A program made the translations under genes and the position numbers. A stretch of DNA of 64,000 nucleotides from Fistulifera solaris (Eukaryota), in NCBI GenBank assembly GCA_030295235.1, contig AP026129.1, forward strand, positions 310,001-374,000, in the 5' to 3' direction. The stretch's first letter is position 1; every line of letters begins with the position of its first letter. Below the pieces are notes generated by a model. It did no database searches. It saw nothing but the letters and a program-made list of their open reading frames with translations, and was not told the DNA's origin. Positions 9,111 through 57,037 of this stretch are shown here, one piece after another.

Positions 9111-10772
9111 TCGCATCCTCTAAGGACGTATAAAAATGTACATTCATCGCATCGGTTCAAATCCATTGACAAGTCGATAGGTACCGGTACCTAAACCTGA
9201 TACGGTTCTTGTGGTCGACGAATGCTCCGCGACAGCCACTTTCACCACGTAACTCAACAATAAGGTTAGTATTATTGGGTGTCTCGGTGGTTTCAGTAAA
9301 ATCGTCGTGAAAGATTTTTTCGAGAAACAAATGATCGAATTTTTCGCCACACTTGACCATCGATTTCATTTGAAGACGAAGCACTCAAAACTATGCTTGT
9401 CTTGTTCAACCTATAGGTAACTTACAAAAAAATAGACACAATCACTGCTGCTCCAAGAAACGAGATCCAGCCAATTCACTTAGCGCAATCGATTTTGCCG
9501 CACACATTGGTGAACAATTTTGTTTGGAGTACATCAAAAGACAATCAAAGATGCTGAGACTGAGAGAAAAAATGACAATCTCAGCGGGGTCTTGAATCTA
9601 TCACAGGAAAACCTTATAAATACCTGTCAGCAGCGTATACATGAGCCTAGATATTCGACGACAGCTGATTTACTTTCACAAAACCAATTGACCGAGACGT
9701 TATTGCCACAACCATCGCACCTTCTTCAACGACCGAGAAAAATCGACGAACAGAATGCACACTGCAAAGAAAAGATACGGGTACAAGAAAACGACCATAT
9801 TTACTTGTCCACATTGCCTTCAGTGAATTGCAGTGATGAGATGTCGAAAAATTATCTTCCGTCCGACTCGACAACCGTATCTATGGAATTTCAACGAAAG
9901 AGCAAACACTCGTTTCAGGAGGAAGCAGCATCAGACCATCTACGGAGTATTGCAACAGACCGATATTTAAACAACAATATGAGGTTTGCTGACAGAAGCC
10001 CTCGTAGAAATTCTGACGCGACTAAGAAATCCGAGTTTGCGATGACAGCCCGCTCTGTAACATCGAACCTCGAAAGCGCAGAGAACGGCCAGATTCCTTT
10101 TTCCCATATTCTTACTCTTCAAGCTGCGACGGTAATAAAGTTAATCTATATCGTGATGTGTTGAAAATCAATTCAGGTGCAACGGACCGGCAGATCCGGA
10201 TCGCGTATTTTCGCGAGGGTCGTGGGATCTTGACCGATGATGAACTATCACCGGCATCCAAACGACAATTCGAAGCCATCAGTCTTGCCTACGAAATTCT
10301 GTCTCGTTGGAGAGAGCAATATGATTCCTGTGACGATGATCTGAACCAGCTACTGAATGACTCGCGCTGAAGAGTCTGGTGAAAAACAACCTGCCCAACA
10401 GAATCAAACGCCGGTCCTAACCGCCTCTTCAGAGAGGACGGATACTAAAATGCCATCTTTGACAAATAAGAGTCGCGGAATCCACTGGAATGAAAAAAGT
10501 CGAAGAATGGCTGTACGAACAAAGTCCCCAGAAAGCTGACAATGTATACCTCGACGAACAAACTACCATTACGGAGACAGACGAGCTACCCCAGAATCAC
10601 CATCAAGTGCTTGGCAACGCAGAATTTGATAGGGAGATGTCAAACGATAACGACGAAATGTGTCAACCCGGATCAAAGTATTTAGAACGTACTACCATGA
10701 CAGTAGTCAATGCGCGTTCTCTGGCCAATCATCTGACAAATTTTGACCCTCCAATTATCAACACGTTTCGAC

Positions 10773-10948
10773 TATCGTGGGAAGACTCTAATTGCTATGC
10801 AATAGTCGTTTACAAGAAGAGTGAGCTCATGGAGAGCTCGTTATTCTACGATCTTATTGAGGAAGTCATTCATTGTGTCTTCCGGTGCCGTTCACGTCAA
10901 GGCTAGGGACTGACGGAGTCTTGGATGTAGATAGTCCTCCGGCCGATA
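10773..10948 (-). repeat. 3' LTR (176 bp)
   Basis: TATCGTGGG...GGCCGATA. The adjacent internal sequence reads AGGGGGCGG on the minus strand (polypurine tract, 10949-10957). Confidence 0.95.
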
Positions 10949-10949
10949 C

Positions 10950-13900
10950 CGCCCCCTGATCAAAACTAGGGATGTTTTGATTAAAAGTAAATTTGGCCGA
11001 AGAGGAGACAGAGTAGGAAGGGAGGGAGTGACCCATAGAGCGGCGAGCATGGCGAGAATGCAGGACCCAACCGAGAGGTTTGGTGAGATCGTCGGCGTTG
11101 TTGAGAACGCCAGAAATGTACCGCATAGTGATATCGCCGTGTTCTTTCCATTCTTGAATTGCAAAATATTGAATATCAACGTGGCGCTCTGTGGGCTTTT
11201 TGGAGTTAATCATGTTGATAGTTGACATATTATCTTCATAGATTGGGGTCGGACCAGATTGGGGAAAACCAAGTTCAGCTAATACCGAAGCGGAGGTAAC
11301 GGGCATGTTTGGCAGCAGTCACAGCAGCGAGGAATTCAGCTTCAGTAGAACTAGTGGCAGTAATGGATTGCGTAGTACACCGATAAGAGATAGCACCACC
11401 ACAAAGCATAAACACGTATCCTGTAGTAGAGCCGTCGGGTTTTTAGATCATTGGCGAGCGGCATCCACAAAGCACTGCAAGGAAGTAGGATCCGTAGCAG
11501 GGGAACGGAGGAAGAGAAGGATCTGGGGCAAGAAATGTGCGAGGAATGACGGGGAGGCGATGGCGTTGGGGCAGGTTTGTGGAACACAATACCCCAATCG
11601 GAGGTTTCACGAAGATAGCGAGCAATGTCCTTGAGAAGGGTAAAATGGACGTCATGCGGGTAAGCCGGCAAACTTCGACAGGGTAACTAAGGCGTAACCG
11701 ACATCCGGGCGACAAGTGACATAGGTATAGAGCAGTTCACCAAGGAGAGAACGAAATTTGAAGCCATGTTTTGTCTCAAGGGCAGCATGGTCGGGCGAAC
11801 TTTCCGGCGGGCCAATGTTTTCGTGAGATGAGGGGAATGGAATCAGCAGGAATGGGGGACTGTGGCACAGTAGTCGGGTGTGTAGAGGGGTCATCCAACC
11901 ATGTGTCTGCATCACGCGACCAATGTAATCCTTCGCAGAGATTTCAATACATGAGTCAAACTGATTGATGTTGACGCCATTGAAGACGCGGAGGAGGCCT
12001 TCATATTTAAAAGGAACTTGTGGCTCGGTAGGGAGTTGAAGACGTGTACCAATAGCAGCGAAAATGTCTTTGGCAATAGATTCCGAAGGGCAAGCAAGAG
12101 CGAAGTCGTCCACTTGGCGAAGGAGGAGGACCGGAGTGCCGTTCCAAACCGCAGAGTATATGGTACGGTCATGGGTGGTGCTTATAAAACCTAATGCATG
12201 GAGGATGGTAGAAATATGAGCCTCCCAGAGTTTTCCAGATTCAGGGTGGCCTTGTAAAGCATGGTTCACCGGAAGGACAAGGGAGCGATCGAGATCGATG
12301 CCAAAACGGTCTTTGTACCAATCAGCATAGGGCGTCATCAATTTCCACATAGGTAGGCACACCCGGTGGGGGGGAATGGGGCGTAAGCATCTTTAGCGTC
12401 AGCTTTATAGATAAGGTAGCAAAGAGCAGCAGCCAAAGCGATGAACATACGCTGTATTGGTTGCATTGCACGACAGTAGGTAGAGGCATATCCATGTAAG
12501 GCAGGAGCAGCTTTCTTGGATCCATCACAACAGTTGCGAGACCTGCGTTCACCATCCTTCTTGACAGAGTAATTCCAGTGTTGCCGAAGGACAATAGCAT
12601 GCTTAGGACGGCGACATGGGGGGCCGTACATACGGAGTGCGTGGAAGTGGTCAAGTTGGCGATGTTCGCCACGGCGCCACTCAAGCCAATTGGAAAGCGT
12701 CTTGAGTTTTCGGCGGGTGAGTTTCCCAAGGGCCATTTCCTCTGGTGTGAGAGATGTAGAGGACATAGCAAAGACACCAAGGGCGTAGTGCATCGAGGCA
12801 AGCAAAGTCATCAGAGAAATCAAGATCAGGATAGAGTACAGAGGTGATGAACAAGATATCCTCGGCGGAAAAGTCCGGAGCGAAGTTGTCGAGCTGGTCG
12901 GGGTGATCCGGCTGGAACAAATTGAATTCACGAAGCGCACGGTGGAATGTGTTCCCACCAAGATACCGTTCAGGGGCAAGAGTCAGGGAAACGGAGGGCG
13001 GAGAAGTAGCAAGGCAAGACGCCAAAAGCGGCGGTAGCGTCATCAACAGTAAATACAGTGTGCTCGCCAACGGAGAGTGATGTAAGCCAGCGCAATGTAT
13101 TTTTAGCGGCTTTGAGCGAAGAGTGGAGCTGAGCGGCACTTGATTTAGACACAATATCACGAATGTAGACACGATTGTTGAGTTCGTCTCGAGCAAGTTG
13201 GAAACCCAGGGTCCGGCCACGGCATTTGACAGGAACATCCAGCGTAAGAGTAGCGGCGAAAGGTGAGTTGCGAAAATAGAAAGTGGAGACAGAGCATTCA
13301 GAGGGCTCTGAAGGCAGAGGGTCACCATTTTGCGTGCGTTGCAAGTGGATGACATTTGGAGGAATTTGATCAGTGGGCAGATCATTCATTCCTTCATCAA
13401 AGCGGACGTGTTTGGCGATCTTGACGCGGTCAGAAGCCACATCATACCAAAGTATATTGCGAGTGGTGTTAGGTAGAAAGCCAAGGAAAATACCCTTCGC
13501 TGAAGCAGATTTGAATTTAGCTTGGCGACGGCCAGGGGAACGGACCCAAACGCGGCAGCCAAAAGTCCGGAAATCACTAAAATCATCTTGCGTGCCCGTT
13601 GCAAGTGCGAAGCGGGGATTGGTGCTGGTCACGAGATGGAAGGGAATTGGTAATGCGGAGCCAATGGTGAAAAGCGTAGGGCCAAAACTTTACTGACAAA
13701 TTTGCACCAATGAGCATAGCACGGATAGCATTTGCAATGGTAAGGTGGGCACGCTCAACGGGTCCATTCTGATTAGAAGCATCAGCACCAGTCGGACAGA
13801 CAGTGTATCCATGTTTGGCAAACACAGAGAGTACCGCTGGATTGTGATACAGTTCACCACCTTGGTCCAAGAAGACATATTTGCCACGACAGGACGGCTT

Positions 13901-18959: not shown

Positions 18960-18971
18960 GGCTCAATAACC
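18960..18971 (-). promoter_or_regulatory. Primer-binding site GGTTATTGAGCC (half-tRNAiMet type)
   Basis: Directly abuts the 5' LTR. Resembles the GGTTATGRGCCC PBS of Drosophila copia and yeast Ty5. Confidence 0.7.
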
Positions 18972-19146
18972 TATCGTGGGAAGACTCTAATTGCTATGCA
19001 ATAGTCGTTTACAAGAAGAGTGAGCTCATGGAGAGCTCGTTATTCTACGATCTTATTGAGGAAGTCATTCATTGTGTCTTCCGGTGCCGTTACGTCAAGG
19101 CTAGGGACTGACGGAGTCTTGGATGTAGATAGTCCTCCGGCCGATA
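18972..19146 (-). repeat. 5' LTR (175 bp)
   Basis: Direct repeat of 10773-10948 (TTACGT vs TTCACGT is the only difference seen). Confidence 0.95.
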
Positions 19147-20640
19147 TCGACAGGAATTCTTTTGAAGAAAGCTTCGGCACCTTTGATGAATTTTTAAGTA
19201 AAAGTGACGATATCCACTTGAATGATAGCCGAACTCCCAAGAAAAGCAACAGGACGAGCGAGTGCTACGAAGACTCTATTGTGGACCTCTATCAATCGTT
19301 GGAAAAGTCGATTAGTCCAAACGACGTTTTGCCGCGGTCACCGCCCAAGTACCACGCCAATGATACGCTGGCTCGGAACCTATTTCAAGAAGATATTTCG
19401 TATCCAACACGAACGACGCCGAAAAGTAGCAGCCGAGTCGAACAAAATGAATGTTGTGTTGATGAGTGGTCAGAGTGTCAGCTGAGTCTTAATGAGAACA
19501 GTCTTCGTTCCGCCTTTTCGAGAGATCCCTTTGCAGCTTTGAATTTCCCCTCACTTGGAAGCTCGGAGCTGCCGCCAGAGTTCCGTCCGTTCAAGACATC
19601 ACTTGTAGCATCGCAACGGAACGTCGAAAGAAAGCCTACAATGAAGAAGAAACCATTAAAGGATTGTCCTGCGGCCGGCAATATGAAACCTCCACAAGTG
19701 TTCGACCGAACACATCGAAAGGTCATTGTTTCGAGTCCTTTACAGTCGGGGTACGATCATCCTAGAAAATCCACATCGTCAGGTAGAGTCATCGGCTTTC
19801 CGAAGGCTCCAGGTTTACCAGTGGGAACCGTCAATTTAAAGCGAATTCGATCGAACTTGTCCACAAATAGCGGCATCACCTTTGAAGATACTACCACGGC
19901 CACTGGAGGTGCTTCCATCACCCCTTTCTGTGACGACGCCTTGTTGGATCATGTTTCGTGTTACTTTATTCAACTTGGCCATGATGTTACTGAACTCCGC
20001 AATCGCGTCAATGCGGAAATGGACAAGATTGGTACGACTGTAGGAACGACCATTACGCAATACTCTCAACGTGCTTCCGTCGGCCTGGGTGATATTGGAA
20101 ATTCAATGTCACAAACTTGGGAGCATGCTAACCAAGCAATTTCTTCCTCCATCAAACCTCATGACCGAAGTGGGAAAGGATGAATCTCAAATATGCCTTT
20201 CAAAAACACATTACGTTCGACATCATTAGCATAAACTGAAAAACTACGAATACTAAGGAGTCGCTGTAATATTATCAAATCCCGCAGCACTTCTTTTGTT
20301 ACCAACTAGATTAGCTATAGTTCATCAAAATCGCAAAGCCTTAGCGTTTCCCAAAGACTCCGTACCAGGTACCGGTACCAATACAAGTACCCGGTACTTG
20401 TAGTAGTCTTTAGGCTTTTCCATTCGATCAATCGATACCGGTCCGCGATAGCTACTCTAAGTCTTGGTGTGAAGATGGCTTTGAATATTATTATCTTAAA
20501 AACGTGCTCTTTGGGCGTCGCGTTCAAGGGAGGTTGTCGCGCGTTTGCCGAAAATCACAACCATGAGAAATACAAACCATTCAATCGTTTTCATAAGACC
20601 GCTATTTTCTTGTCATCTTGCGTAAGCTGCAATTGCACAA

Positions 20641-25081: not shown

Positions 25082-26965
25082 ATGAAGGTATGCTCTTCCT
25101 CGACAAAAAGACCCATTTTACACAGTATCGTTACATTGTTGATGATACAATTCGATTATAGTCGGCGTTGTTTGTCGTTTGTAAGACCTTTGTATCAACA
25201 ACAACACGTTCGCTTACTTTCACAACAAATCAACCCAACTCTGGAATGGAAAGGTGCAGCACACTCTACTTCTGGTTTCGTATCGCATGTTCTGGTCGAA
25301 GAAGAAGGCTCTACATCTTTCGAGCAAGTGTCTCGAGTCTTGACCGCGCGAAAACATGCCAACGATACGGTCACCGACTTGAATGCTCTTGAATTAATGA
25401 GGCTCGGTGCTGTGTGGTTCTTGCCCTTCGATGCTCCACGTGATCCATCGAAGGGAATCAAACCAGTGCGCCTTTTTGAGAACCGTGATCTTCAACCTGG
25501 GGACTATTTAAGAGTCCACCATAATCCAAGGAGATTTCCCGCTGTCAAAAAGTATGATTGGTCGGCATTTAAATCGTATGCTTCATCGGATAAACCAGGG
25601 ATCATCGTCGCCCGGAACGCTACCAAGGGGTGGATGGTTATTGACAAACCACCAAACGTTCCAGTTCACATGACAGTGGACAATAGTCGCGAGAATGTAG
25701 CGTCCTGTCTAGAGGAAGTCCTACGCTCCTATGTGACGACACCCCAGCGACTAGATCAAAATACGTCGGGATTGTTGGTGGTGTCCACTTCGAAAGTGTT
25801 TGCAAATTATTACGCCGATCTTCTGAGACACAAAACAGCGCTACAGCTAGAAGTGAATCAAACACAGGAAACCGAGCATTTTCGTGATTATATACATAAG
25901 AAATATCGGTGTCTAGTTTGTTTACAAGAAGATGATGACAGATCCATCTTGGAAGCTGCGCGTGAACTACAACAGCTTCGTGGTTCCATCATACGTCATT
26001 ATTTGGAACCTTCGATTCGAGCACCCAAGCATTTTGTGGCAGAAACATTCGATTCTGCATGGTTGGAATGCTTACTCCGCATAACTGGCACCAGTGATGT
26101 GTATGCCCTAGTCGGTCATGGACAGGAACTAGCCAACAATCTGTGGAGTTGTCCTGCAGAAGACCGACCGCCATCATGTCAGGCAGTCATGGAATTGGAG
26201 ATTGAGTTGCTAACAGGGCGGACGCATCAAGTGCGTGGTCAGTTGTCAGCCATGGGCTTTCCGATCGTTGGTGATACGCAGTATGGTGGTGCCATTCCGC
26301 AAAGCGTACCATCACGTTCCTCCGATGGTGTTGATTTCCAAGATTCCGCCCAGTTGGCTTTGCAATGCTGTGCCCTCGAGTTCGCAGACCCAGATATTGT
26401 CGAAAAGAGCGATGGTACAGAAAGCATGAGACGATCACAGCGTTGGAACTCGTTCGGACTGGATACGGCATGGTGGACTCCGTTTCTCCGCGCGTATGAT
26501 TCTAATCCAAAAGCGGACGGCAAAAGTCAAACGGACGTTGCTACAAACCTGGAAGAAGAGAACAAGCTACGGGTACGTTCAGTGCAAACAAGAAAGCTCC
26601 CACGACCCGACTTGTTGCCTCCACGCGTTTCACTTTCTAAGGGTGTGAACAAGTATGTTCTCATTCGAGCCACTCATCCACTCACTGACTCTGTCGAATG
26701 GTTCGTAAAGAGTGCGGCACCGTTCGAATGTGGCGGTCCTTACCACGGAAATGTGGCCCAAGACTTAGGAGAATGGATTGCAGCTGCCGGGTACAAGGCC
26801 GAAGTAACCGGAGGCGGACGTATTGATTATGACGGCTCAAAAGCTGTCGTGTACGGATTCAGTTACGGCTTTGGGAAAGGGGATCATGCGAAAGCGGTTG
26901 AACTGATTCGAAAATATCAGCCAGAAATTGATGCAACGTTTGACAATACCGATGGTCTGTATTGA
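25082..26965 (+). CDS. RluA-family pseudouridine synthase fused to a C-terminal Janus/ocnus (PHPT1-like) domain
   Basis: IDKPPNVPVH, QRLDQNTSGL, LLTGRTHQVRGQLSAMGFPIVGDTQYG; then KYVLI, YHGNV, GGGRI, VYGFSYGFGKGDH. Confidence 0.88.
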   Translation: MKVCSSSTKRPILHSIVTLLMIQFDYSRRCLSFVRPLYQQQHVRLLSQQINPTLEWKGAAHSTSGFVSHVLVEEEGSTSFEQVSRVLTARKHANDTVTDLNALELMRLGAVWFLPFDAPRDPSKGIKPVRLFENRDLQPGDYLRVHHNPRRFPAVKKYDWSAFKSYASSDKPGIIVARNATKGWMVIDKPPNVPVHMTVDNSRENVASCLEEVLRSYVTTPQRLDQNTSGLLVVSTSKVFANYYADLLRHKTALQLEVNQTQETEHFRDYIHKKYRCLVCLQEDDDRSILEAARELQQLRGSIIRHYLEPSIRAPKHFVAETFDSAWLECLLRITGTSDVYALVGHGQELANNLWSCPAEDRPPSCQAVMELEIELLTGRTHQVRGQLSAMGFPIVGDTQYGGAIPQSVPSRSSDGVDFQDSAQLALQCCALEFADPDIVEKSDGTESMRRSQRWNSFGLDTAWWTPFLRAYDSNPKADGKSQTDVATNLEEENKLRVRSVQTRKLPRPDLLPPRVSLSKGVNKYVLIRATHPLTDSVEWFVKSAAPFECGGPYHGNVAQDLGEWIAAAGYKAEVTGGGRIDYDGSKAVVYGFSYGFGKGDHAKAVELIRKYQPEIDATFDNTDGLY

Positions 26966-27203
26966 TCTTCTAAAATACGATGATGATATACATTCGTTTC
27001 AACAATGAGTTCAAACAAAAAGTCATGGATCAGCTTGTTGAAGAGCGAGAAAGTACCTGGTAGCGTCGTAAAAATTGTTTATGCCAAACTATATAGCACA
27101 ACTCACGATTCAGTCGCGAAATGACACCAGATTTGACTGTGTGACCGTATGTACCATGTGGCGGCAAGATTGTCATCCGCGACACAAAAGATCTTCGCAC
27201 AGG

Positions 27204-27366
27204 GAGACACGGGAACGCACCTCTGCTTGGTATATTTCTCTACGGGGGCCTACGCGAAAGTACGGTACACAATTTCCCGCACCGTCCAGGAAGGTGCGGG
27301 AAAAGTGTACATTCACGTAAACCCCCGTAGAGATATGTACGGAGCAGAGGTGCGTTCCCGTGTCTC
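27204..27366. repeat. ~165-nt imperfect foldback (MITE-like)
   Basis: 24-bp perfect outer arms (27204-27227 / 27343-27366), with inner arms CTCTACGGGGG/CCCCCGTAGAG and TTTCCCGCACC/GGTGCGGGAAA. Confidence 0.9.
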
Positions 27367-27516
27367 TCAGTACCTGGTACAAGTACCAGTAAAAGTCGTC
27401 TTCCCTTTCTCTCCGAATCTTTTCGAACAACAAGTCAATAATATTATTTCACACAAATTGATTGATATCATCTCAAAGACAAACAGAGACTCTAGAGAGA
27501 GAGAGATAAAAGCAAG

Positions 27517-28627
27517 ATGCAGTTGAATCAGCGCATTCCGTGGAAAGACTCGAATCTGTCTCTGATTGGCAGTGATCTCGATCACAAAATCAAAGAAGCC
27601 GCGGCGGACGACGAGACTCAATGGGAGGGAATCGGTGTAGAACCCGGTTTGCAGGTGTGGCGAATCGAAGATTTCAAAATTGTACCATGGGATAAACCAG
27701 GCAAATTCTATACCGGGGACTCGTACATTGTTTTGAATACCTATCAACGAAACAACAAACTGCTGCACGATGTTCACATTTGGATCGGAAGTGAATCTTC
27801 GCAAGACGAGTACGGCACCGCTGCTTACAAAATGGTCGAATGTGATGAAGTATTAGGAGGCGGAGCAGTTCAGCATCGCGAGACGCAGGGTCATGAGAGT
27901 TCCTTGTTTCAGAGTTACTTTGATGACAAACTGGAATATTGGACGGGTGGTTCGGCCTCGGGGTTTCATCACGTCGAAGCCACCGATGAGCAACCTATTC
28001 TTTACCGTGTCAAAGGAACTCAAAAGGGTCTTCGCATGACACAGTTGCCGCTGAAGAAAGGCTCGTTGAATCACGGAGATTCCTTCATTTTGTATGCGAG
28101 TACTAGCTCTGTCTGGATCTGGCACGGTAAGTCGGCCAATCCAGATGAAAAAAGCAAAGGCGGGCACTCTTGGAGAAAAGATGTGCACGCATGGGACTGC
28201 GGTCGTATTAGACGACGGCGATGACGACGACGCTACTAATTTCTGGAAGTATCTCGGTTCGGGCGAAATTTCTGAAGCTGATGATAAGGATCACACGGTG
28301 GAGAGCTTTGTCCCTGTCCTCTACAGACTCCACCAAGGCGGAGAACCGGAACAGGTATCAAAAGCAGCCGCTCAAGTAAAAATTCGTTTTGGAAAAGCCG
28401 ATCCACCCATTGATAAGAATCTGCTGGTAGAGGATGAAATGCTTTTGCTGGATGCTGGCTGGGAATTGTTTCTCTGGATGGGAAAAGACGTGCAGCGAAC
28501 TGAGAAATTGCAAGCAATCGCACAAGCCGAGGATTTCAGCAAGAAGGATGCCCGAACGATGAATCTGCCATTGACTCTAGTTAAGTCTGGGTGGGAAAGT
28601 AGCGATTTCATGTGCCATTTTGGGTAA
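27517..28627 (+). CDS. Gelsolin/severin-like actin-binding protein (3 domains)
   Basis: GLQVWRIEDF, FYTGDSYIVL, WIGSESSQDEYGTAA, QHRETQGHES, LNHGDSFIL. One frameshift at ~28160. Confidence 0.93.
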
Positions 28628-29447
28628 CGTTGGCAAGGAGCATCATTGCAACTACTTTGAAGTCATACATACTATGAACAAGACCGAAAATTATTAACGA
28701 GAAAGTTTTTCAATCAACATGGTCATATCGTGAAAAATATCATTTGCATCGTTCCCAACCAAGGACCGGAGAATGCTTTGGTGCAACTAGCCGAACGCGA
28801 CAACTTTTACTGAATATTACGAAGGAACACTTACTGTACGCCTTTAGGACAGGCATATTTACCATGCACATGGGATTTAAACGAGACAGCAAATTCTTTA
28901 TACGACGCACGACGCGTCGCTTCGTTTTGGTATTGATAAGCAATCAAGCGTTCACAAGACGCCTCAGATGGATTGAATAGGACCGAGATTGAAATACTCA
29001 AACAATGGCTGTATGCTAGTACATCCTAAACGCCGTCAGCCTGAATGAATTCGTCTTTATCCAACAAAACATAATTCCCAGATTGATAGCTCCATGGGCT
29101 TCGCAATTAGAGCACAAAGCGCGACACAACATGTTGGATGATAATATGCACGCTTTGGTTTGATTTTTGATGGGTGCCTGCGCTTTCAGCTCTATGTTGG
29201 TGGTAGAACATTATGATCTCCTCTCGCGCGTTTTGTAACTTGAGTAAGAAACTGAAGGCTCCTTCAGAAGAAAATGAAGTGATCTTATAGCGTAGAGCGC
29301 AAGACAACAAAAGATGGAGAGACTAGAGCAAATAACAATCCGCACGACCACGAAAAGGCTTGCGCGCACAGAATTGGACAGTGTCAGATGGAGGAGCTCC
29401 TCCCGACGCCCGTCGCCATTCCCCGCCACACGCATCCTTCCGTTGTA

Positions 29448-29455
29448 TTTATATA
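29448..29455 (+). promoter_or_regulatory. TTTATATA box upstream of the structured region
   Basis: ~35-40 nt upstream of the first predicted helix. Preceded by a C-rich element (29419-29433). Confidence 0.35.
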
Positions 29456-29489
29456 TTAATTAAATTTACTTGGTTTTGAAAATGAACAA

Positions 29490-30070
29490 GTGTTAGCATG
29501 TAGTTGTTGTGGTATACATTTTTCATTGTGCTGGGACATATGGGGGACCCTTGCGAGTGCCCGTACCCGCTAACCTATTTCTAGGATAACTCATAAGCAC
29601 CGCAAGAGCTCCGAAGACGTTAAGCAGATGTCAACAAGCGATCACAAACGCCCATGTATCCGGTTGGGAGCGGAAAGGCGAATGTGGCTTTCATAAGCTG
29701 CTCAGCGGGTGAACCCCAAACCCCGCTCAACCGTTACCATTGCTTCACCAATCATCGGCGCACACAGTTCTTCGGCACGCCTCATGGATCCCACAACTCA
29801 GGTGAAGAACTTTTCCCAGCACAATGCTCCAACTGCGTGTTTTCCGGTAAGGCAGGAAGCCTCGCAAGCAGGCAAGCGAATCGTCGAGACGACACGAGGT
29901 TGCCGTTTCGCGAGACGACTCCTCCTTCCTCGGGACATACGCACCACAACCCTTCATGCGCTCCCACTGAGTATTCAACCATACGGTCCCAAGCTATGAT
30001 CGCAGGCCACAGCTTTGGCAACAACTGAATACGGGGAGGACATCAAACCTCTCTCAGTCGCCTTTGAGAG
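29490..30070 (+). ncRNA. Candidate large structured ncRNA (telomerase-RNA-like architecture)
   Basis: No credible ORF. Nested helices: 29496-29500/29955-29959, 29506-29513/29943-29950, perfect 13 bp 29524-29536/29814-29826, 29834-29846/29931-29943, 29854-29859/29925-29930, 29971-29977/30026-30032. Confidence 0.55.
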
Positions 30071-31267
30071 GAGATGTGAGAAGAAGAAGAACGCAGCGAA
30101 AAAAGAGAGAAAGATGTTTGGCGATGCTTCTCCTACTTGTATCGTAAAATCAAAATCAGTTTGTGTTCACAAACTTAATTTAAAATCATTTAGAGGGAGC
30201 TCTCTAAGTATTTCTGTCTCGAGCAACGGTTTTCTCCATGTATCGGTTGGGATCCCACGTGTTCCACGAATGAATGTCGCGATATACGCCTCTGGATATT
30301 TTCCAATATTGATGAAAGCAGCCGCGAGCCCGGCCTGCTCGTATCTCACCAGCGAAATACGCGTTTAAAATTCAATTCGAACCGGGGGGAAATAGTGGAT
30401 CGCAAGTCCAATGGAGGCACTTTGTTTGCCACTCCACGATGAACGACGATGGATGTTTTGTTTTCTGTTTTTGCGTTCATCCTTCACGCCTTGTTTCAGT
30501 CTTGTTATTTCAATCGCAGTCTTTCGATGTGTAGCTTGTCTGCGTGTACGTGTCTGCGTATGCATAATATCGGAGATGAGATCACCCGACCAACTTGCAT
30601 TTACGCATTATTTCACATACTCTCGCCATTCTTACAGAAAGAAAACGATTCTTCTAATAACTCCGTACTATTCATAACAATTAGTGATGATTCGGGAGAC
30701 AGAATGTGCCCTAACGTTTCTCAAATCGAACGATGGGAAGCTGCTGTTTATCGAAAATTTGATGGACCTTAACGCCGACTTACACGGATCGAACAGGTTG
30801 CTCATTACGCTTATCATATTATATCATCCGTTAGCGTTCTCGTGAACGTCATTGTAATCGGAGTATACCGATCCGATTGACATTGATGGAAAGGACATGA
30901 CGATTATGTGAAACACGATGGTTTATTGTTTGTTTGTACCTGGTCATGAACTTCGTGGAATCGTCGTTCAAATAGGAAATTCGGTATTCGAGAAAAACAC
31001 CGTAATTGCGTATCCCCGCAACCGACCGCGCGGAAGTGGACCCAGTGCGTGTCATTCGATTGAATTTTCCCTGAATCAATGGCTTCTAACATCCAACCAC
31101 ACGCCCAAAGCCACTATAGGTCCCACCCTCATTCTCGTTCTACAGCAAAACAAAAGAAATCCTGAACAACGAGGAGTCTTCCCCTCAGAATGTTAAACAA
31201 CATTGTAACTATGTGTGATATCAAAGTCATGTTTTTATTATTACTGCATGAGGCTGTTTCGTCTCTT

Positions 31268-31900
31268 CTACATGCCATCGCGACTCGTCATCCCCACAAA
31301 GAACTGATCCCGAGCTTGTCGAAACGCTTGTGTGAGAGTCATATCACCCGGCGCCACACCCGGTGGCAATCCAGGCTGGTGAGACATGTGACCCATATCG
31401 TCACTCGCACTGGCGTCTTCATCTCGTAACAAAACCGCCGAGGCCAACTTGCGTCCATCCACTTCTAGAATAAGTCCTCCGTCACAGTGTTCATCAATCA
31501 ACAAGAAGACCAATTCCAAGTTATCAAGTACCATGGAGCGATCGGTTGATCCTCCCATGAGTTGCGCTAATGCACTGTGCATTCCCTCGCACAAATAAGC
31601 CAGCACCAACTCCGATTCACTGGGTGAGCCAACATGAACCACTTTGACGTCTGGGCCGTTGCCACCCGTGAATACAGCAGTACGTCCTTGCACGGTGACA
31701 ACTTCGGCAGCATCCGGCCGTGCGGAAATCCCAGCGATTTTCTGCTGCAAGGCTTGTTCAAATTGCAAACGCAACGCTTCGACCGTTTGATCACCGCTGG
31801 GCTTGCTCAAAAACTCTCCGTAATATTTACCCGCGAGGCGATTGCCTTCGTGATCCAAGACAAGAATTGCGTCTATTTTCGGGAGCAAAGGTGGAATCAT
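31268..31900 (-). CDS. COPZ: Coatomer subunit zeta
   Basis: AILVLDHEGNRLAGKYY, SELVL, LDNLELVFLLIDE.CDGGLILEVD, LTQAFRQARDQF. Confidence 0.9.
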   Translation of the reverse strand: MIPPLLPKIDAILVLDHEGNRLAGKYYGEFLSKPSGDQTVEALRLQFEQALQQKIAGISARPDAAEVVTVQGRTAVFTGGNGPDVKVVHVGSPSESELVLAYLCEGMHSALAQLMGGSTDRSMVLDNLELVFLLIDEHCDGGLILEVDGRKLASAVLLRDEDASASDDMGHMSHQPGLPPGVAPGDMTLTQAFRQARDQFFVGMTSRDGM

Positions 31901-32211
31901 TGTTGATAATAGTCAAAAACAAGAACGAGTGGAATGAAAAATACTGCGGTTCGCGTCGCTTATTGCGACCATGGTCACGACGACAGGAGCGCCTTGCCTC
32001 GTTGCGAAAAAAAGCAGCAGATGACTTTTTTAGTACCGAACGGTTATGGCGTCACGACGTGATTGAATGCCGTTTACCCTTTGCATAAGCTTATCCTTAA
32101 GTGAAGAATAATTCGAGCGAATGAATGAGGCCAACTCATCGCAACAACAACAAAAAACATTGTCAGGCTCATCATTGTTGTAAGCATTAAGTAAGAAAGG
32201 GTCCATCTTTC

Positions 32212-33713
32212 ATGTATTCTCGCACTATTTGTCTACCAAGAAATCTGTTTATCGTGTCGTGGTTTTTGATCCTTTCTCAACGAGCTGCTACCGTTCGTTC
32301 ATTTCATTTCTGCCGATCGTTTTCCACCGCAATCGGCCGTCCCCTCATCAGCATGGCGCCGGCTCGTACTTCTCCTCGTCGACGGACGCTAGCTTCTACT
32401 AAAGAAGAAGAATCCGCTGAAAGAACCATTATAGAGTCACCGAAGAAGAAACTAGCAAAAGTGGTGAAAACGAAAAAGATAACAGCAAAAGCGACTGTTA
32501 CAACCAAATCACCCAAAGGATCTACGGCAACGACGACACAAGGTGAAATAACACCCAAGAAACAAAAACTTTCCAAAGGTTCCGATACAGAAGACTCCCC
32601 CCACAAAAAAGGTCAAAGCACCGAAACATCAAGTCGTCACGACTCGAGACCCTATTCCCAAGCTATGGAATGAAGATCGCGCACGTGAAAATAACTCTTA
32701 CAGTACGTCTCGTCGGCACTTACATCGCTGAAAAGCTTTCGTCACCTCATTTCCGTTTACTCTTTGTATTTTATAGCCTTTAAAATCGCCACTTGGAATG
32801 TGGCTGGTTTGCGGGGTCTTTTGACCAAAGATCCAGAAGCATTGAAGAATTTGTGTCAAAAGCATGATCTGGATGTGTTGTGCTTACAGGAAACCAAGTT
32901 ACAAGAATCACACGTGACGGATCTCAAACTAAATCTGACACAGCATCATCCTATTGGGTACGATGCCCACTACTCGTGTTCCAAAGCTCGCAAAGGTTAT
33001 TCCGGAACGGCTGTTTTTGTGAAACGACAAGCGGTGACGAAACAACAAACAACGTTGGATTCGTTCTTTCAACCGAAAACATCGGAAAGAAAGGAAAGGA
33101 AAGTACAAAGTACGTTCCAGCAAACTTCGATCGTTCGTTGTTGTCACCCACCGAGATTCTATTCGATATGGGCATTGAAAAGCACGACCAAGAAGGACGA
33201 ATGGTTGTTTTGAAGTTTCCTCATTTCACTTTGGTGAATGTATACGTTCCGAATTCGGGTCAAAAGTTAGAGCGCTTATTGTATCGCACCGAGGAATGGG
33301 ATGTAGATTTTTTGAAATTTATGCAGTCACAGCCCAACGCCTTGTGGTGTGGCGACTTGAACGTGGCGCACACGAACCTCGAAGTCTGGAATGACGGCGC
33401 CAAGCATTTGGCAACACAAGCCGGTGTCACTGAACAGGAAAGAGCTTCTTTCACGCATCAATTAGAAACTGGATTTATTGATGTGTTTCGTCACCTCCAT
33501 CCAACTGCGGCGGGACACTACACGTACTGGAGTCAGCGAGCTGGGAACCGAGAACCGAACAAGGGCTTGCGCTTGGATTATTTCATTTGCCATCCGTCTT
33601 TATTAGAAGAGTCCTCGAACATAATAGTCCGGGACAGTTACATGGACCCAGAGCAAATGGGATCGGATCATTGTCCAGCTATAGTGGAAATGGAAATCAA
33701 AGCTACTACATAG
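32212..33713 (+). CDS. AP endonuclease (ExoIII/APE1 family)
   Basis: KIATWNVAGLR, LCLQETK, KGYSGTA, EGR, NVYVPNSG, CGDLNVAH, LRLDYF, GSDHCP. Intron 32703-32776. Frameshifts. Confidence 0.92.
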
Positions 33714-41000: not shown

Positions 41001-42077
41001 GGTGTTTTCACGTGCGCAGAAAACTTGACACCGCACCCCCAGAAAATCTTGGCAATTGATCTCTTCACGTTCCCAGAAAATCTGGGGGTGCGACGTTTTC
41101 AAGTTTCCAAAAATTCTGGGCTTATGATGTTTTCACGTCCCCACAAAATCTGGAGGTGCGATTTTTTTACGTTACCAGAAAAGCCGGGCGAGTGGGAGTG
41201 GTGTTCTGAAATTCCCAGAAAATCTGGGCTTTCGATGTGATCACTTTTCCAGAAAATCTGGGTATAAGATGTTTTCACGTGCCCACAAAATCTGAATGTG
41301 CGATTTTTCACTAGCTCAAAAAATTTGTGCGGGTGGTGTTTTCACTTTGCCCAAAAGATCTGGGCGAGCAATGTTTTCACATTTCCCAAAAATCTGGACG
41401 AATGATGTTTTCACGTGCCCAAAAAAATATGGGCGTGCAGTGTTTTCACGTTTTTCTAAAAAAATCTGGGCGAGCAATGTTTTCAGTTGTCAAGAAAATC
41501 GTGGCTTGCGATGTGTTTACGCTCCCAAAAAAAATCTGGCCTTGCAATTGCAATGAGTTCACTTTCCCAGAAAATCTGGACGAGAAGTGGGGGTGATGTT
41601 TTCACGTTCCCAGATCTTCTGGGCGTGTGATGTTTTCACCTGCCCAGAAAATCTGTGGATGTTATGTTTTCACTTGCCCAAAAATTCTGGGCGCGCGATG
41701 TTTTCAAGTTTACCGAAAATCTGGAAGTGTGATGTTCTTACGTGCCCGAATAATCTGGGGTGCAGTGTTTTACCATACAAAGAAAATCTGTATGTTTGAT
41801 GTTTCCACTTCTCCAGAAAATCTGGGGGTGCGATGTTTTCACGTTCTCAGAAAATCTGGGCAGGTGTGTGTTTTCCAATTCCCAGAAAATCTGGGGGTGT
41901 GATGTTTTCACTTGCCCAGAAAATCTGGACCAGTGATGTTTTCACTTAACCAGAAAATCTGGAAGAGTGATTTTTCACTTGCCCAGCAAATCTAGGCTGG
42001 TAATGTTTTCACGTCCCCAGAAAATTCGGATGTGCGATTTTTAACATCCCCAGAAAATCTGGGTGCGTGATGTTTTT
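41001..42077. repeat. ~34-bp minisatellite, about 30 diverged copies
   Basis: Consensus approx. GATGTTTTCACNTNCCCAGAAAATCTGGRNGYGY. Confidence 0.93.
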
Positions 42078-56145: not shown

Positions 56146-57037
56146 CTGTTAACGCTGTCTATTTCTACGGCATTTTTGTGTTCTTCATCCGCTGGCTTTG
56201 GTCAGGAAACTCGGGAGCTGTTAAATGTTTTCGTTAATGTCATTATCTACTGGTGGAAACCTAAGGGTGTCCTCGATCAACGAAGATATCTCTAATCTTG
56301 AGCATAGGCTGAGTCAATCTACATTTTAAAAAAAGTCAAGAGAGTCTAATTCGGCCTGAAGGAGCAAGCAACTTATCTTTATCTAAGCGGAACTTCTACG
56401 GATACCATCGCACCTTCAGGATAGGTACGGTACCGGTACCTGGTATGTCTTTTGCCATGTCGTTGGTAGTGTGTTGAGCTTAAGAGACTATCTCTGGACT
56501 CTGGAGCAACTGGTAAGGCTTAGAGCTACTACTAGAGTCTCGAGTTTTTAGGGTTTGTCGGGTTTCGGCACACGGAGCTCTCGAAATCTCCGCTCTCCGC
56601 TCCGACCTATCGTCCGACAGTTTTTATCGGAGTGCCAGGTAAACAATAGACAGATACTGTCAGACATCTTACCGTAGTAGCAGCTTTTCTGCATTTGTTG
56701 TCGGTAGGTCGGTACCCAGGTATAGACATTTATTATTCCTACCAGGCTACCGGGTACCGGTACCGTTTTTACTTGCTTACTCTGCTTGCTGCTTGTGAAA
56801 ACGGGTGTGACTACGGAGGAACTCTCTTAACTCTTAATTACCAGGTACCGGTACCGGTACCGTACCTGGTAATTACTCTGGTCGGTGTCGCTAGTATTTT
56901 GATGACTTCATGTCTTCTTTGCTTTTCCCTCTCAACCAACCTGTGAGTCGATTGCATTTACCGTTCATCGTGAGCATCCTTTGATTACACAACAACGATC
57001 GCAAATCGCACGTCATTCAAAACAATTATTACAAAGG

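Follow-up and report, generated by a model that had tools for sequence, protein, structure and literature searches.

Telomerase RNAs of the plant/ciliate type are a few hundred nucleotides long and are reportedly transcribed by Pol III from a type-3 promoter. Long telomerase RNAs made by Pol II exist in fungi and trypanosomes, and are represented in Rfam by Sacc_telomerase and Telomerase_Asco. According to the passages of Fajkus 2021 on which we draw here (PMC8287931), the template of a telomerase RNA corresponds to the telomeric C-strand, circularly permuted and longer by at least one nucleotide, and further criteria are a type-3 promoter with USE and TATA elements, a T-rich terminator, a template boundary element and a closing stem. 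The same passages list a pseudoknot 3' of the template as a criterion, rate candidates by the number of similar genomic sequences, and name the Rfam family Telomerase-cil (RF00025); within them, a stramenopile telomerase RNA candidate is proposed only for Blastocystis (PMC8287931). For diatoms, excerpts from a second source report the telomere repeat TTAGGG in Phaeodactylum and Thalassiosira and an unusual G-rich 12-mer, TTAGGGTTGGGG, as the telomere of Nitzschia inconspicua (PMC8329260). A telomerase RNA is reported for no diatom in the literature searched.

Here we consider a GC-richer block at 29490-30070 of the window, which is the whole 64-kb stretch of DNA that was analysed. An earlier note had proposed that the block encodes a telomerase RNA or an ncRNA of an undescribed class. 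The block resembles telomerase RNAs of the plant/ciliate type in its predicted long-range closing helix around an internal domain, its distal long stem, its upstream TATA box and a partly single-stranded C-rich motif spanning nearly two repeat units. It differs from them in that it has no Rfam telomerase match, its would-be template fits no reported diatom repeat, it contains internal T5 and T4 runs and no clear T-rich terminator, its RNA would be ~570-650 nt long, and there are signs of many genomic copies. The long Pol II telomerase RNAs are similar in size range and in the likely Pol II transcription of the block, but a supported template, an Rfam match, an Sm site and an H/ACA or C/D signature are all lacking in the block.

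A non-coding block between two genes

The block lies in a gap of ~2.5 kb between a gene with gelsolin repeats, upstream, and a coatomer zeta gene at 31268-31900 on the minus strand. The gap is bounded by a poly(A) at 28717 and a poly(T) at 31219, both of which are loose ends of RNA contigs. The best named relatives of the coatomer zeta gene, at 64-67% identity, belong to Seminavis, Epithemia, Mayamaea and Nitzschia, and, judged by sequence, the source of the window is a raphid pennate diatom. GC content is 0.49-0.565 across 29500-30099 versus 0.39-0.46 alongside. An insert of organelle DNA was considered and rejected, as a GC content of 0.55 and the many variant contigs described below would both argue against it.

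The claim that this gap holds no credible coding sequence was borne out by Pfam, codon-score and ORF checks. None of the 50 stop-to-stop ORFs of at least 35 codons in 28650-31300 matched a Pfam family at E<=0.001 (the best value short of this threshold was 0.018), and no remnant of a transposon protein was found among them by Pfam. A codon score trained on 23 long ORFs of the window averaged 0.124 over 78 coding windows, with a minimum of 0.018, and gave 0.20 for coatomer zeta and 0.16 for a gelsolin exon, two controls outside the training set. The six frames of the block scored from -0.06 to -0.19.

These results bear directly on the possibility that the block is an unannotated protein-coding exon, which we regard as so improbable as to be nearly negligible. 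Such an exon could be the longest ORF, at 29624-30028 (134 codons from stop to stop, 133 residues), and open frames of 82-134 codons are indeed present on both strands. However, this ORF scored 0.007, below the minimum of the 78 coding windows, it has no Pfam match, and it has no relative of 73-233 residues in a set of 5.8 billion proteins (four candidates, none of which scored). A relative of the block in a freshwater metatranscriptome (run X5, below) differs from it without a pattern of every third base. ORF-seeded scans confirmed 0 of 120 matched stretches in metagenome contigs and 0 of 6 in viral contigs, and exact matches were absent both for a 22-mer of the block in metagenome contigs and for a 20-mer in viral contigs. 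The single stretch confirmed out of 96 in genome contigs comes from an archaeal MAG; 38% identical over 37 residues and without DNA similarity to the block, it is a chance match. The block is non-coding.

Predicted fold and the telomerase RNA reading

The helices, motifs, TATA-like box and T5 run that the earlier note described are present in the sequence, the exceptions being a set of three hairpins and the favoured status of a pseudoknot hairpin. In the fold of the block, which is a prediction from one sequence, 19 helices of at least 3 bp have pair probabilities above 0.8. An outer helix is predicted to join the ends of the block as had been described, pairing GCATG (29496-29500) with CATGC (29955-29959) at a pair probability of 1.00 and, further in, GTTGTGGT (29506-29513) with ACCACAAC (29943-29950), which folds as 29506-29512/29944-29950, also at 1.00. 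Taken alone, such 8-bp and 5-bp pairings are trivial by chance. Within the outer helix, the perfect 13-bp helix between CATTGTGCTGGGA (29524-29536) and TCCCAGCACAATG (29814-29826) was found as claimed (P 0.99); it encloses 277 nt, close to the ~280-nt domain of the original description. Because a perfect inverted repeat of at least 13 bp within 400 nt also turned up when the window was dinucleotide-shuffled (in 32 of 100 shuffles; mean 0.37), this helix by itself is at chance level.

Of the second long stem with three hairpins, the stem stood and the three hairpins did not. The fold has one long irregular stem (29835-29875/29900-29942) of seven helical segments (P 0.96-1.00), capped by just one hairpin, GTCG-AGA-CGAC, at the apex of 29835-29942. 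Beyond it, a 3' domain at 29961-30077 is predicted to consist of the helices 29961-65/30034-38 and 29971-77/30026-32 and a hairpin at 30048-53/30066-71 (P 0.84-0.97), so that the further hairpins proposed to run to ~30070, namely GTATTCA (29971-77) with TGAATAC (30026-32) and a hairpin around 30048-30071, are present. On the plus strand, a TATA-like box, TTTATATA, lies at 29449-29456, ~40 nt before the first helix, where it may serve as a promoter element.

As a whole, the block is predicted to fold better than chance, to a moderate degree. The plus strand of 29490-30070 folds at -192.8 kcal/mol versus a mean of -171.3 for dinucleotide shuffles (z -3.28) and the minus strand at -219.9 versus -199.2 (z -2.62), with 1 of 100 shuffles as good in each case. 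A second control compared the block with 408 other 581-nt stretches of the window, taken on a 200-nt grid over positions 1-44581 on both strands, with energy regressed on base composition and with the block itself and two obvious repeats left out of the regression fit. Against this background the z score was -2.94 for the plus strand and -3.13 for the minus strand, and 1 of the 408 stretches had a lower energy score; the register of the block was picked after the fact and that of the grid was not. The earlier note had named a fold no more stable than dinucleotide shuffles as an outcome that would count against an ncRNA, and the opposite was seen, at z about -3 with two controls.

These same numbers are what could favour a more mundane reading, in which an ordinary single-copy intergenic or lncRNA transcript folds fortuitously and the block is a choice made in hindsight from 64 kb of sequence. 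On its own the 13-bp helix does not exceed chance, the z score of about -3 is modest and belongs to a register chosen by eye, and both strands of the block fold about equally well. Against this reading stand the single background stretch with a lower score, the presence of the block in the RNA library of a second study, and variant contigs and high depth that would be unexpected for a single-copy spacer. We consider a fortuitous fold distinctly unlikely.

The predicted architecture is also the starting point of the telomerase RNA reading, under which AACCCCAAACCCC would be the template for TTTGGGG, the 13-bp helix would close the core and 29835-29942 would form the distal stem. A core-closing helix and a distal stem are both predicted here, in one sequence, and the layout resembles the arrangement of P1c, template-pseudoknot domain and distal stem in the passages of Fajkus 2021 at hand (PMC8287931). 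The reading draws further on the unusual G-rich telomere of Nitzschia inconspicua in the excerpted source cited above (PMC8329260), and on the empty record of diatom telomerase RNAs in the literature searched.

Both template-like motifs of the earlier note exist, at 29570-29577 and 29712-29724; the template role assigned to them is not supported. Candidate 1, CTAACCTA at 29570-29577, lies half within the hairpin CCTA-TTTC-TAGG (29574-29585; P 0.84-0.99), so that 29574-77 are paired at P 0.84-0.99; because it is paired, and because the X5 relative differs there, it fails as a template. Candidate 2, the 13-nt AACCCCAAACCCC at 29712-29724 on the plus strand, contains 1.86 units of CCCCAAA and occurs only once in the window; most of its central part is predicted to be unpaired, and positions 29723-24 pair at P ~0.7. 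As a template it would need a TTTGGGG telomere, and in the literature searched such a telomere is reported for no diatom. A comparable 11-nt motif, CCCAACCCCAA, lies at 2273 on the minus strand, so that one or two such motifs are to be expected at random in a window of this size. Neither strand of the window contains a TTAGGG-type template of at least 9 nt; 8-nt matches number two, at 56548 and 61668, and both lie outside the block. Neither a template of the TTAGGGTTGGGG type nor a tandem telomere motif was found in the window. The best reading of the two motifs is that they are incidental.

The possible pseudoknot gave a mixed picture. The 6-nt complementarity between the proposed loop and GTGAAG at 29802-07 is present, but the ensemble does not favour the hairpin that carries the loop, at 29739-29752 (its best partners reach P<=0.45), and GTGAAG has a better 8-bp partner at 29766-73 (P ~0.74). 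By our estimate, chance alone should give some loop in a block of this size a 6-nt match within ~100 nt. The T5 run at 29519-29523, raised at the outset as a caveat against Pol III, was confirmed, and T4 runs follow on the plus strand at 29811 and 29840, inside the putative RNA. Thus, of a Pol III type-3 promoter and terminator, the TATA box is present, and the T5 and T4 runs lie within the RNA, where they would end Pol III transcripts early.

Rfam gave no match at gathering score anywhere in the window and no telomerase family at E<=10 in 29200-30500. The four weak matches at E<=10 in 29200-30500 belong to unrelated families and reach 11.8-15.5 bits versus gathering scores of 38-69. A snoRNA cluster, RNase P/MRP, SRP and snRNA were rejected on the same Rfam result and the lack of a C box; no Sm site and no C box, H/ACA or C/D signature was found in the block. 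With no Rfam model, no TTAGGG template, T5 and T4 runs inside the RNA and the signs of many copies described below, the telomerase RNA reading is not supported, and we consider a diatom telomerase RNA at this site very improbable.

Transcript cover and signs of many copies

Parts of 27500-31900 are present in five public runs from two studies. Four of these (X1, X2, X3 and X5) were compared with the window, all of them as contigs, which show neither strand nor RNA ends. X2 and X3 contain polyadenylated RNA, as poly(A)/poly(T) loose ends occur in them at both gene ends, and X5 is a freshwater metatranscriptome from a separate study. An X3 contig covers 29369-29968 (600 letters, 11 differences), an X2 contig covers 29518-29837 (320 letters, three differences), and four pieces from X5 cover 29601-30064 with two to seven differences each, so that contigs of RNA runs span 29369-30064. 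A transcript of the block, as the earlier note had expected, is thus seen in RNA runs from two studies. Cover is absent at 28840-29207 in X2 and X3 and outside 29576-30127 in X5, and these absences are not counted as evidence.

Among the matches listed, depth in X2 rises from 17.4 in the piece ending at 29471 to 407.9 in the piece starting at 29518. This step fits a start on the plus strand soon after the TATA box at 29449, probably ~30 nt downstream of it, and fits the end of a minus-strand transcript equally well.

The contigs also allow a comparison of divergence. Among those listed, the coatomer zeta coding region has 35 differences in 643 letters and 29 in 531, versus 3 in 320 and 11 in 600 in the block; the coding region beside the block thus diverges by 5.4% between RNA contigs and window. 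Before 29601, an X5 contig matches 29570-29599 over 30 letters with six substitutions, and lacks one C of 29600-01 (compared by eye). The hairpin at 29574-29585 reads CCTC-TTTC-GAGG in this relative, which amounts to one compensatory pair, 29577/29582. This pair is suggestive at most; a single compensatory pair among six substitutions in 30 nt could be chance.

Signs of copy number come mainly from X1, a run that carries the label 'RNA? (a guess: may be DNA)'. In total its contigs amount to 52 million letters, the longest being 24 kb, and its pieces with no differences span the two poly(A) sites as well as the start of each gene (27234-27553, 28474-28770, 30826-31289 and 31850-32500) at an even depth of 10-23; X1 would appear to behave like genomic DNA. 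On 5.5 kb it has 282 contigs, 117, 92 and 73 of them at >=99, 95-99 and 90-95% likeness. None of the eight longest X1 pieces listed (274-736 letters) lies within 29324-30336; because all eight sit elsewhere, the block appears to be broken into short pieces. Depth in X1 is 30.7 at 29419, which lies within the C-rich element and is at flank level, reaches 422-818 in bins across 29392-30311, and stands at 267.6 at 30132, 360.2 at 30240 and 128.3 at 30260, before falling to 34.9 at 30581 and 30.9 at 30925. The multicopy-looking part thus extends over roughly 29450-30300, with edges uncertain by tens of bases, and the TATA-like box sits at its left edge. Word depth in the block is ~10-25 times that of the flanks; since summed contig depth is no copy number, a figure of about 10-25 copies would go beyond the count itself.

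Other runs point the same way. An X2 contig matches the window to 30047 and then continues for at least 255 unlike letters; a 16-letter piece of this run-on has no match in the whole window with up to three mismatches. Splicing was rejected as its cause, as no canonical GT/AG was seen on either strand (by eye) and the run-on is absent from the window. X5 has two different contigs over 29667-29787, with seven and two differences. Among the matches listed, indels between variants occur at 29419 and from 30132 on, and none within 29420-30131. The block therefore exists in several variant forms, and contig depth and fragmentation point to many variant copies of it, although no second copy lies inside the 64-kb window.

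One contig joint was also observed that runs from 29282 to 30885, skipping 1602 letters with 19 other letters between. One of its sides is only 28 letters, below the reliability mark. The joint could be an empty-site allele.

Of the ncRNA reading in the earlier note, the transcript and the stable fold were upheld, and the signs of many copies, which that note had named beforehand as refuting, tell against it.

Nature of the element

The observation of the block and its RNA is real. We hypothesize that the block represents a structured non-coding element that is transcribed and multicopy, a dispersed repeat being the likeliest kind, and although this is the account we favour, we hold it tentatively and short of an even chance. 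The block would be the conserved core of a transcribed non-coding element of ~0.85 kb, at roughly 29450-30300, that exists in many slightly different copies in a raphid pennate diatom; the window's copy has the gelsolin-repeat gene on one side and the coatomer zeta gene on the other. The RNA of the element is predicted to adopt a three-part fold, made up of an outer helix, a 277-nt domain that the 13-bp helix closes, and the long irregular stem with the 3' domain after it. The element may be a non-autonomous mobile element or belong to a similar family, and the fold would then be a property of its own RNA. Because there are seemingly many copies and no usable telomere template, the transcript of a repeat family is likelier than a telomerase RNA.

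In support of a multicopy element, we have the 282 X1 contigs and their high depth, the run-on at 30047 and the two X5 variants, as well as a non-coding sequence with a stable fold that is covered by contigs of the polyadenylated-RNA runs X2 and X3. In being non-coding, transcribed, strongly self-pairing and apparently present in many variant copies whose flanks differ (the contig leaving at 30047), the block is akin to non-autonomous transposable elements such as SINEs, MITEs and LARD/TRIM-like elements. It differs from them in that it has no demonstrable TIRs, LTRs, target-site duplication, A/B boxes or poly(A) tail, which speaks against our preferred account, as does the lack of transposon proteins. 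Searches for terminal inverted repeats, LTR ends and target-site duplications at the block returned only chance-level candidates, the best being TG..CA termini with the 5-bp TCCGT at 29444/30826 and the 9-bp TCGCCATTC at 29413/30623, each about as good as chance. In the block, the best matches to A and B boxes have two mismatches each and are not ordered on one strand, and neither a tRNA-like gene nor a poly(A) tail of the element was found. A SINE was therefore rejected on its A/B boxes, its A-rich tail and the lack of a tRNA-like gene, and a solo-LTR, a Helitron and a retroposon were rejected because their ends fit no better than chance. The copy-number argument itself rests on contig depth, and the window holds a single copy.

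The most substantial alternative to a dispersed repeat is a functional structured ncRNA gene, or small gene family, of a class absent from Rfam and distinct from telomerase RNA. We regard this as possible, if on the unlikely side. Pol II would produce an RNA of ~570-650 nt, with the TATA box at 29449 as promoter element, and this RNA would act as an RNP scaffold. It would account for a non-coding block whose fold is an outlier versus both shuffles and window background, for the TATA box ~40 nt before the first helix, and for contigs in X5, an independent freshwater metatranscriptome. The low divergence of the RNA contigs (3/320 and 11/600 differences versus 5.4% in the neighbouring coding region), the confinement of indels to both flanks of 29420-30131, where there are several among the matches listed, and the retention of pairing in the hairpin at 29574-85 via one compensatory pair point the same way; these three features fit selection on an RNA at least as well as a decaying transposon. 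However, a transposon-like family is far likelier a priori among multicopy non-coding sequences, the block has no Rfam match, Sm site or C box, the lone compensatory pair among six substitutions in 30 nt could be chance, and no homologue was retrieved from the metagenome, viral or genome contigs searched.

Multicopy snRNA-type genes, which are dispersed, TATA-dependent and transcribed by Pol II, offer a described parallel for such a family. Like them, the block is a compact non-coding unit with its own TATA box and, apparently, an abundant RNA and several near-identical copies, but it has neither an Sm site nor an Rfam snRNA or snoRNA match and is several times longer. A narrower proposal would make the block a single member of a new gene family in raphid pennate diatoms, whose abundant, strongly structured ncRNAs of ~0.6 kb selection would keep almost unchanged and a TATA promoter of their own would drive; it seems to us doubtful.

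A real diatom telomerase RNA candidate would be valuable, none having been reported in the literature searched, and a false one would be misleading; by the telomerase RNA tests available here, the present candidate fails. It leaves a real, well-folding non-coding transcript, seemingly of a repeat family, that merits a line in a repeat or ncRNA annotation of the genome. Should this RNA turn out to be abundant, the compact region upstream of it could also have practical value.

A possible high-copy hairpin element beside the gelsolin gene

Positions 27204-27366, which lie between the genes for pseudouridine synthase and gelsolin, form a long palindrome (about 165 nt). This palindrome matches its own reverse complement at 79.9% across 169 columns, with perfect 13-bp arms at 27204/27354, and is the strongest fold outlier in the window (z about -5). 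In X1, a public run whose contigs appear to behave like genomic DNA, the bin 27184-27367 reaches a word depth of 3501, which is a summed contig depth and not a copy number. Thirty X1 contigs in this bin share a T>C difference at 27233, and the loose ends of contigs at the palindrome disagree with one another on both the left and the right. With these properties, the palindrome has the appearance of a MITE-like hairpin element in high copy number. Also in the window, an ORF of 627 aa (25082-26965) combines two domains, RNA pseudouridylate synthase (PF00849) and Janus/Ocnus (PF05005).

Other repeats of the window

A second dispersed repeat of the window is a 180-nt direct repeat (10772-10951 and 18971-19149), whose copies are 98.9% identical and lie 8 kb apart. 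Perfect inverted repeats of at least 13 bp cluster at 56427-56875 (56427/56754, 56430/56842, 56753/56849 and 56835/56863), where a 42-nt palindrome spans 56835-56875. At 41030-42076, degenerate tandem repeats with self-matches of 67-75% run through about 1 kb; this region, also a fold outlier on the minus strand, is probably repetitive coding sequence.

Gelsolin and coatomer zeta genes

The gelsolin reading frame is not continuous in the window: one ORF covers 27517-28224, and a second, which overlaps it, covers 28094-28627. Position 28148 falls within this gene, by an A-run near 28146, and all covering contigs from both X1 and the polyadenylated-RNA run X2 are one letter shorter there (18.5 of a depth of 18.5 and 9.88 of 9.88, respectively). 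Because the shorter contigs coincide with a split ORF, the break may be a one-base homopolymer error in the window or a real frameshift, rather than an intron.

The coatomer zeta gene (31268-31900, minus strand, with flanks) also occurs in the runs in a second version that differs at 35 of 643 letters, the differences being spaced by multiples of three and so falling at third codon positions. A public assembly contains a protein, P0002, that is 94% identical to the coatomer zeta protein. These observations point to a second haplotype, subgenome or sister strain that has diverged.
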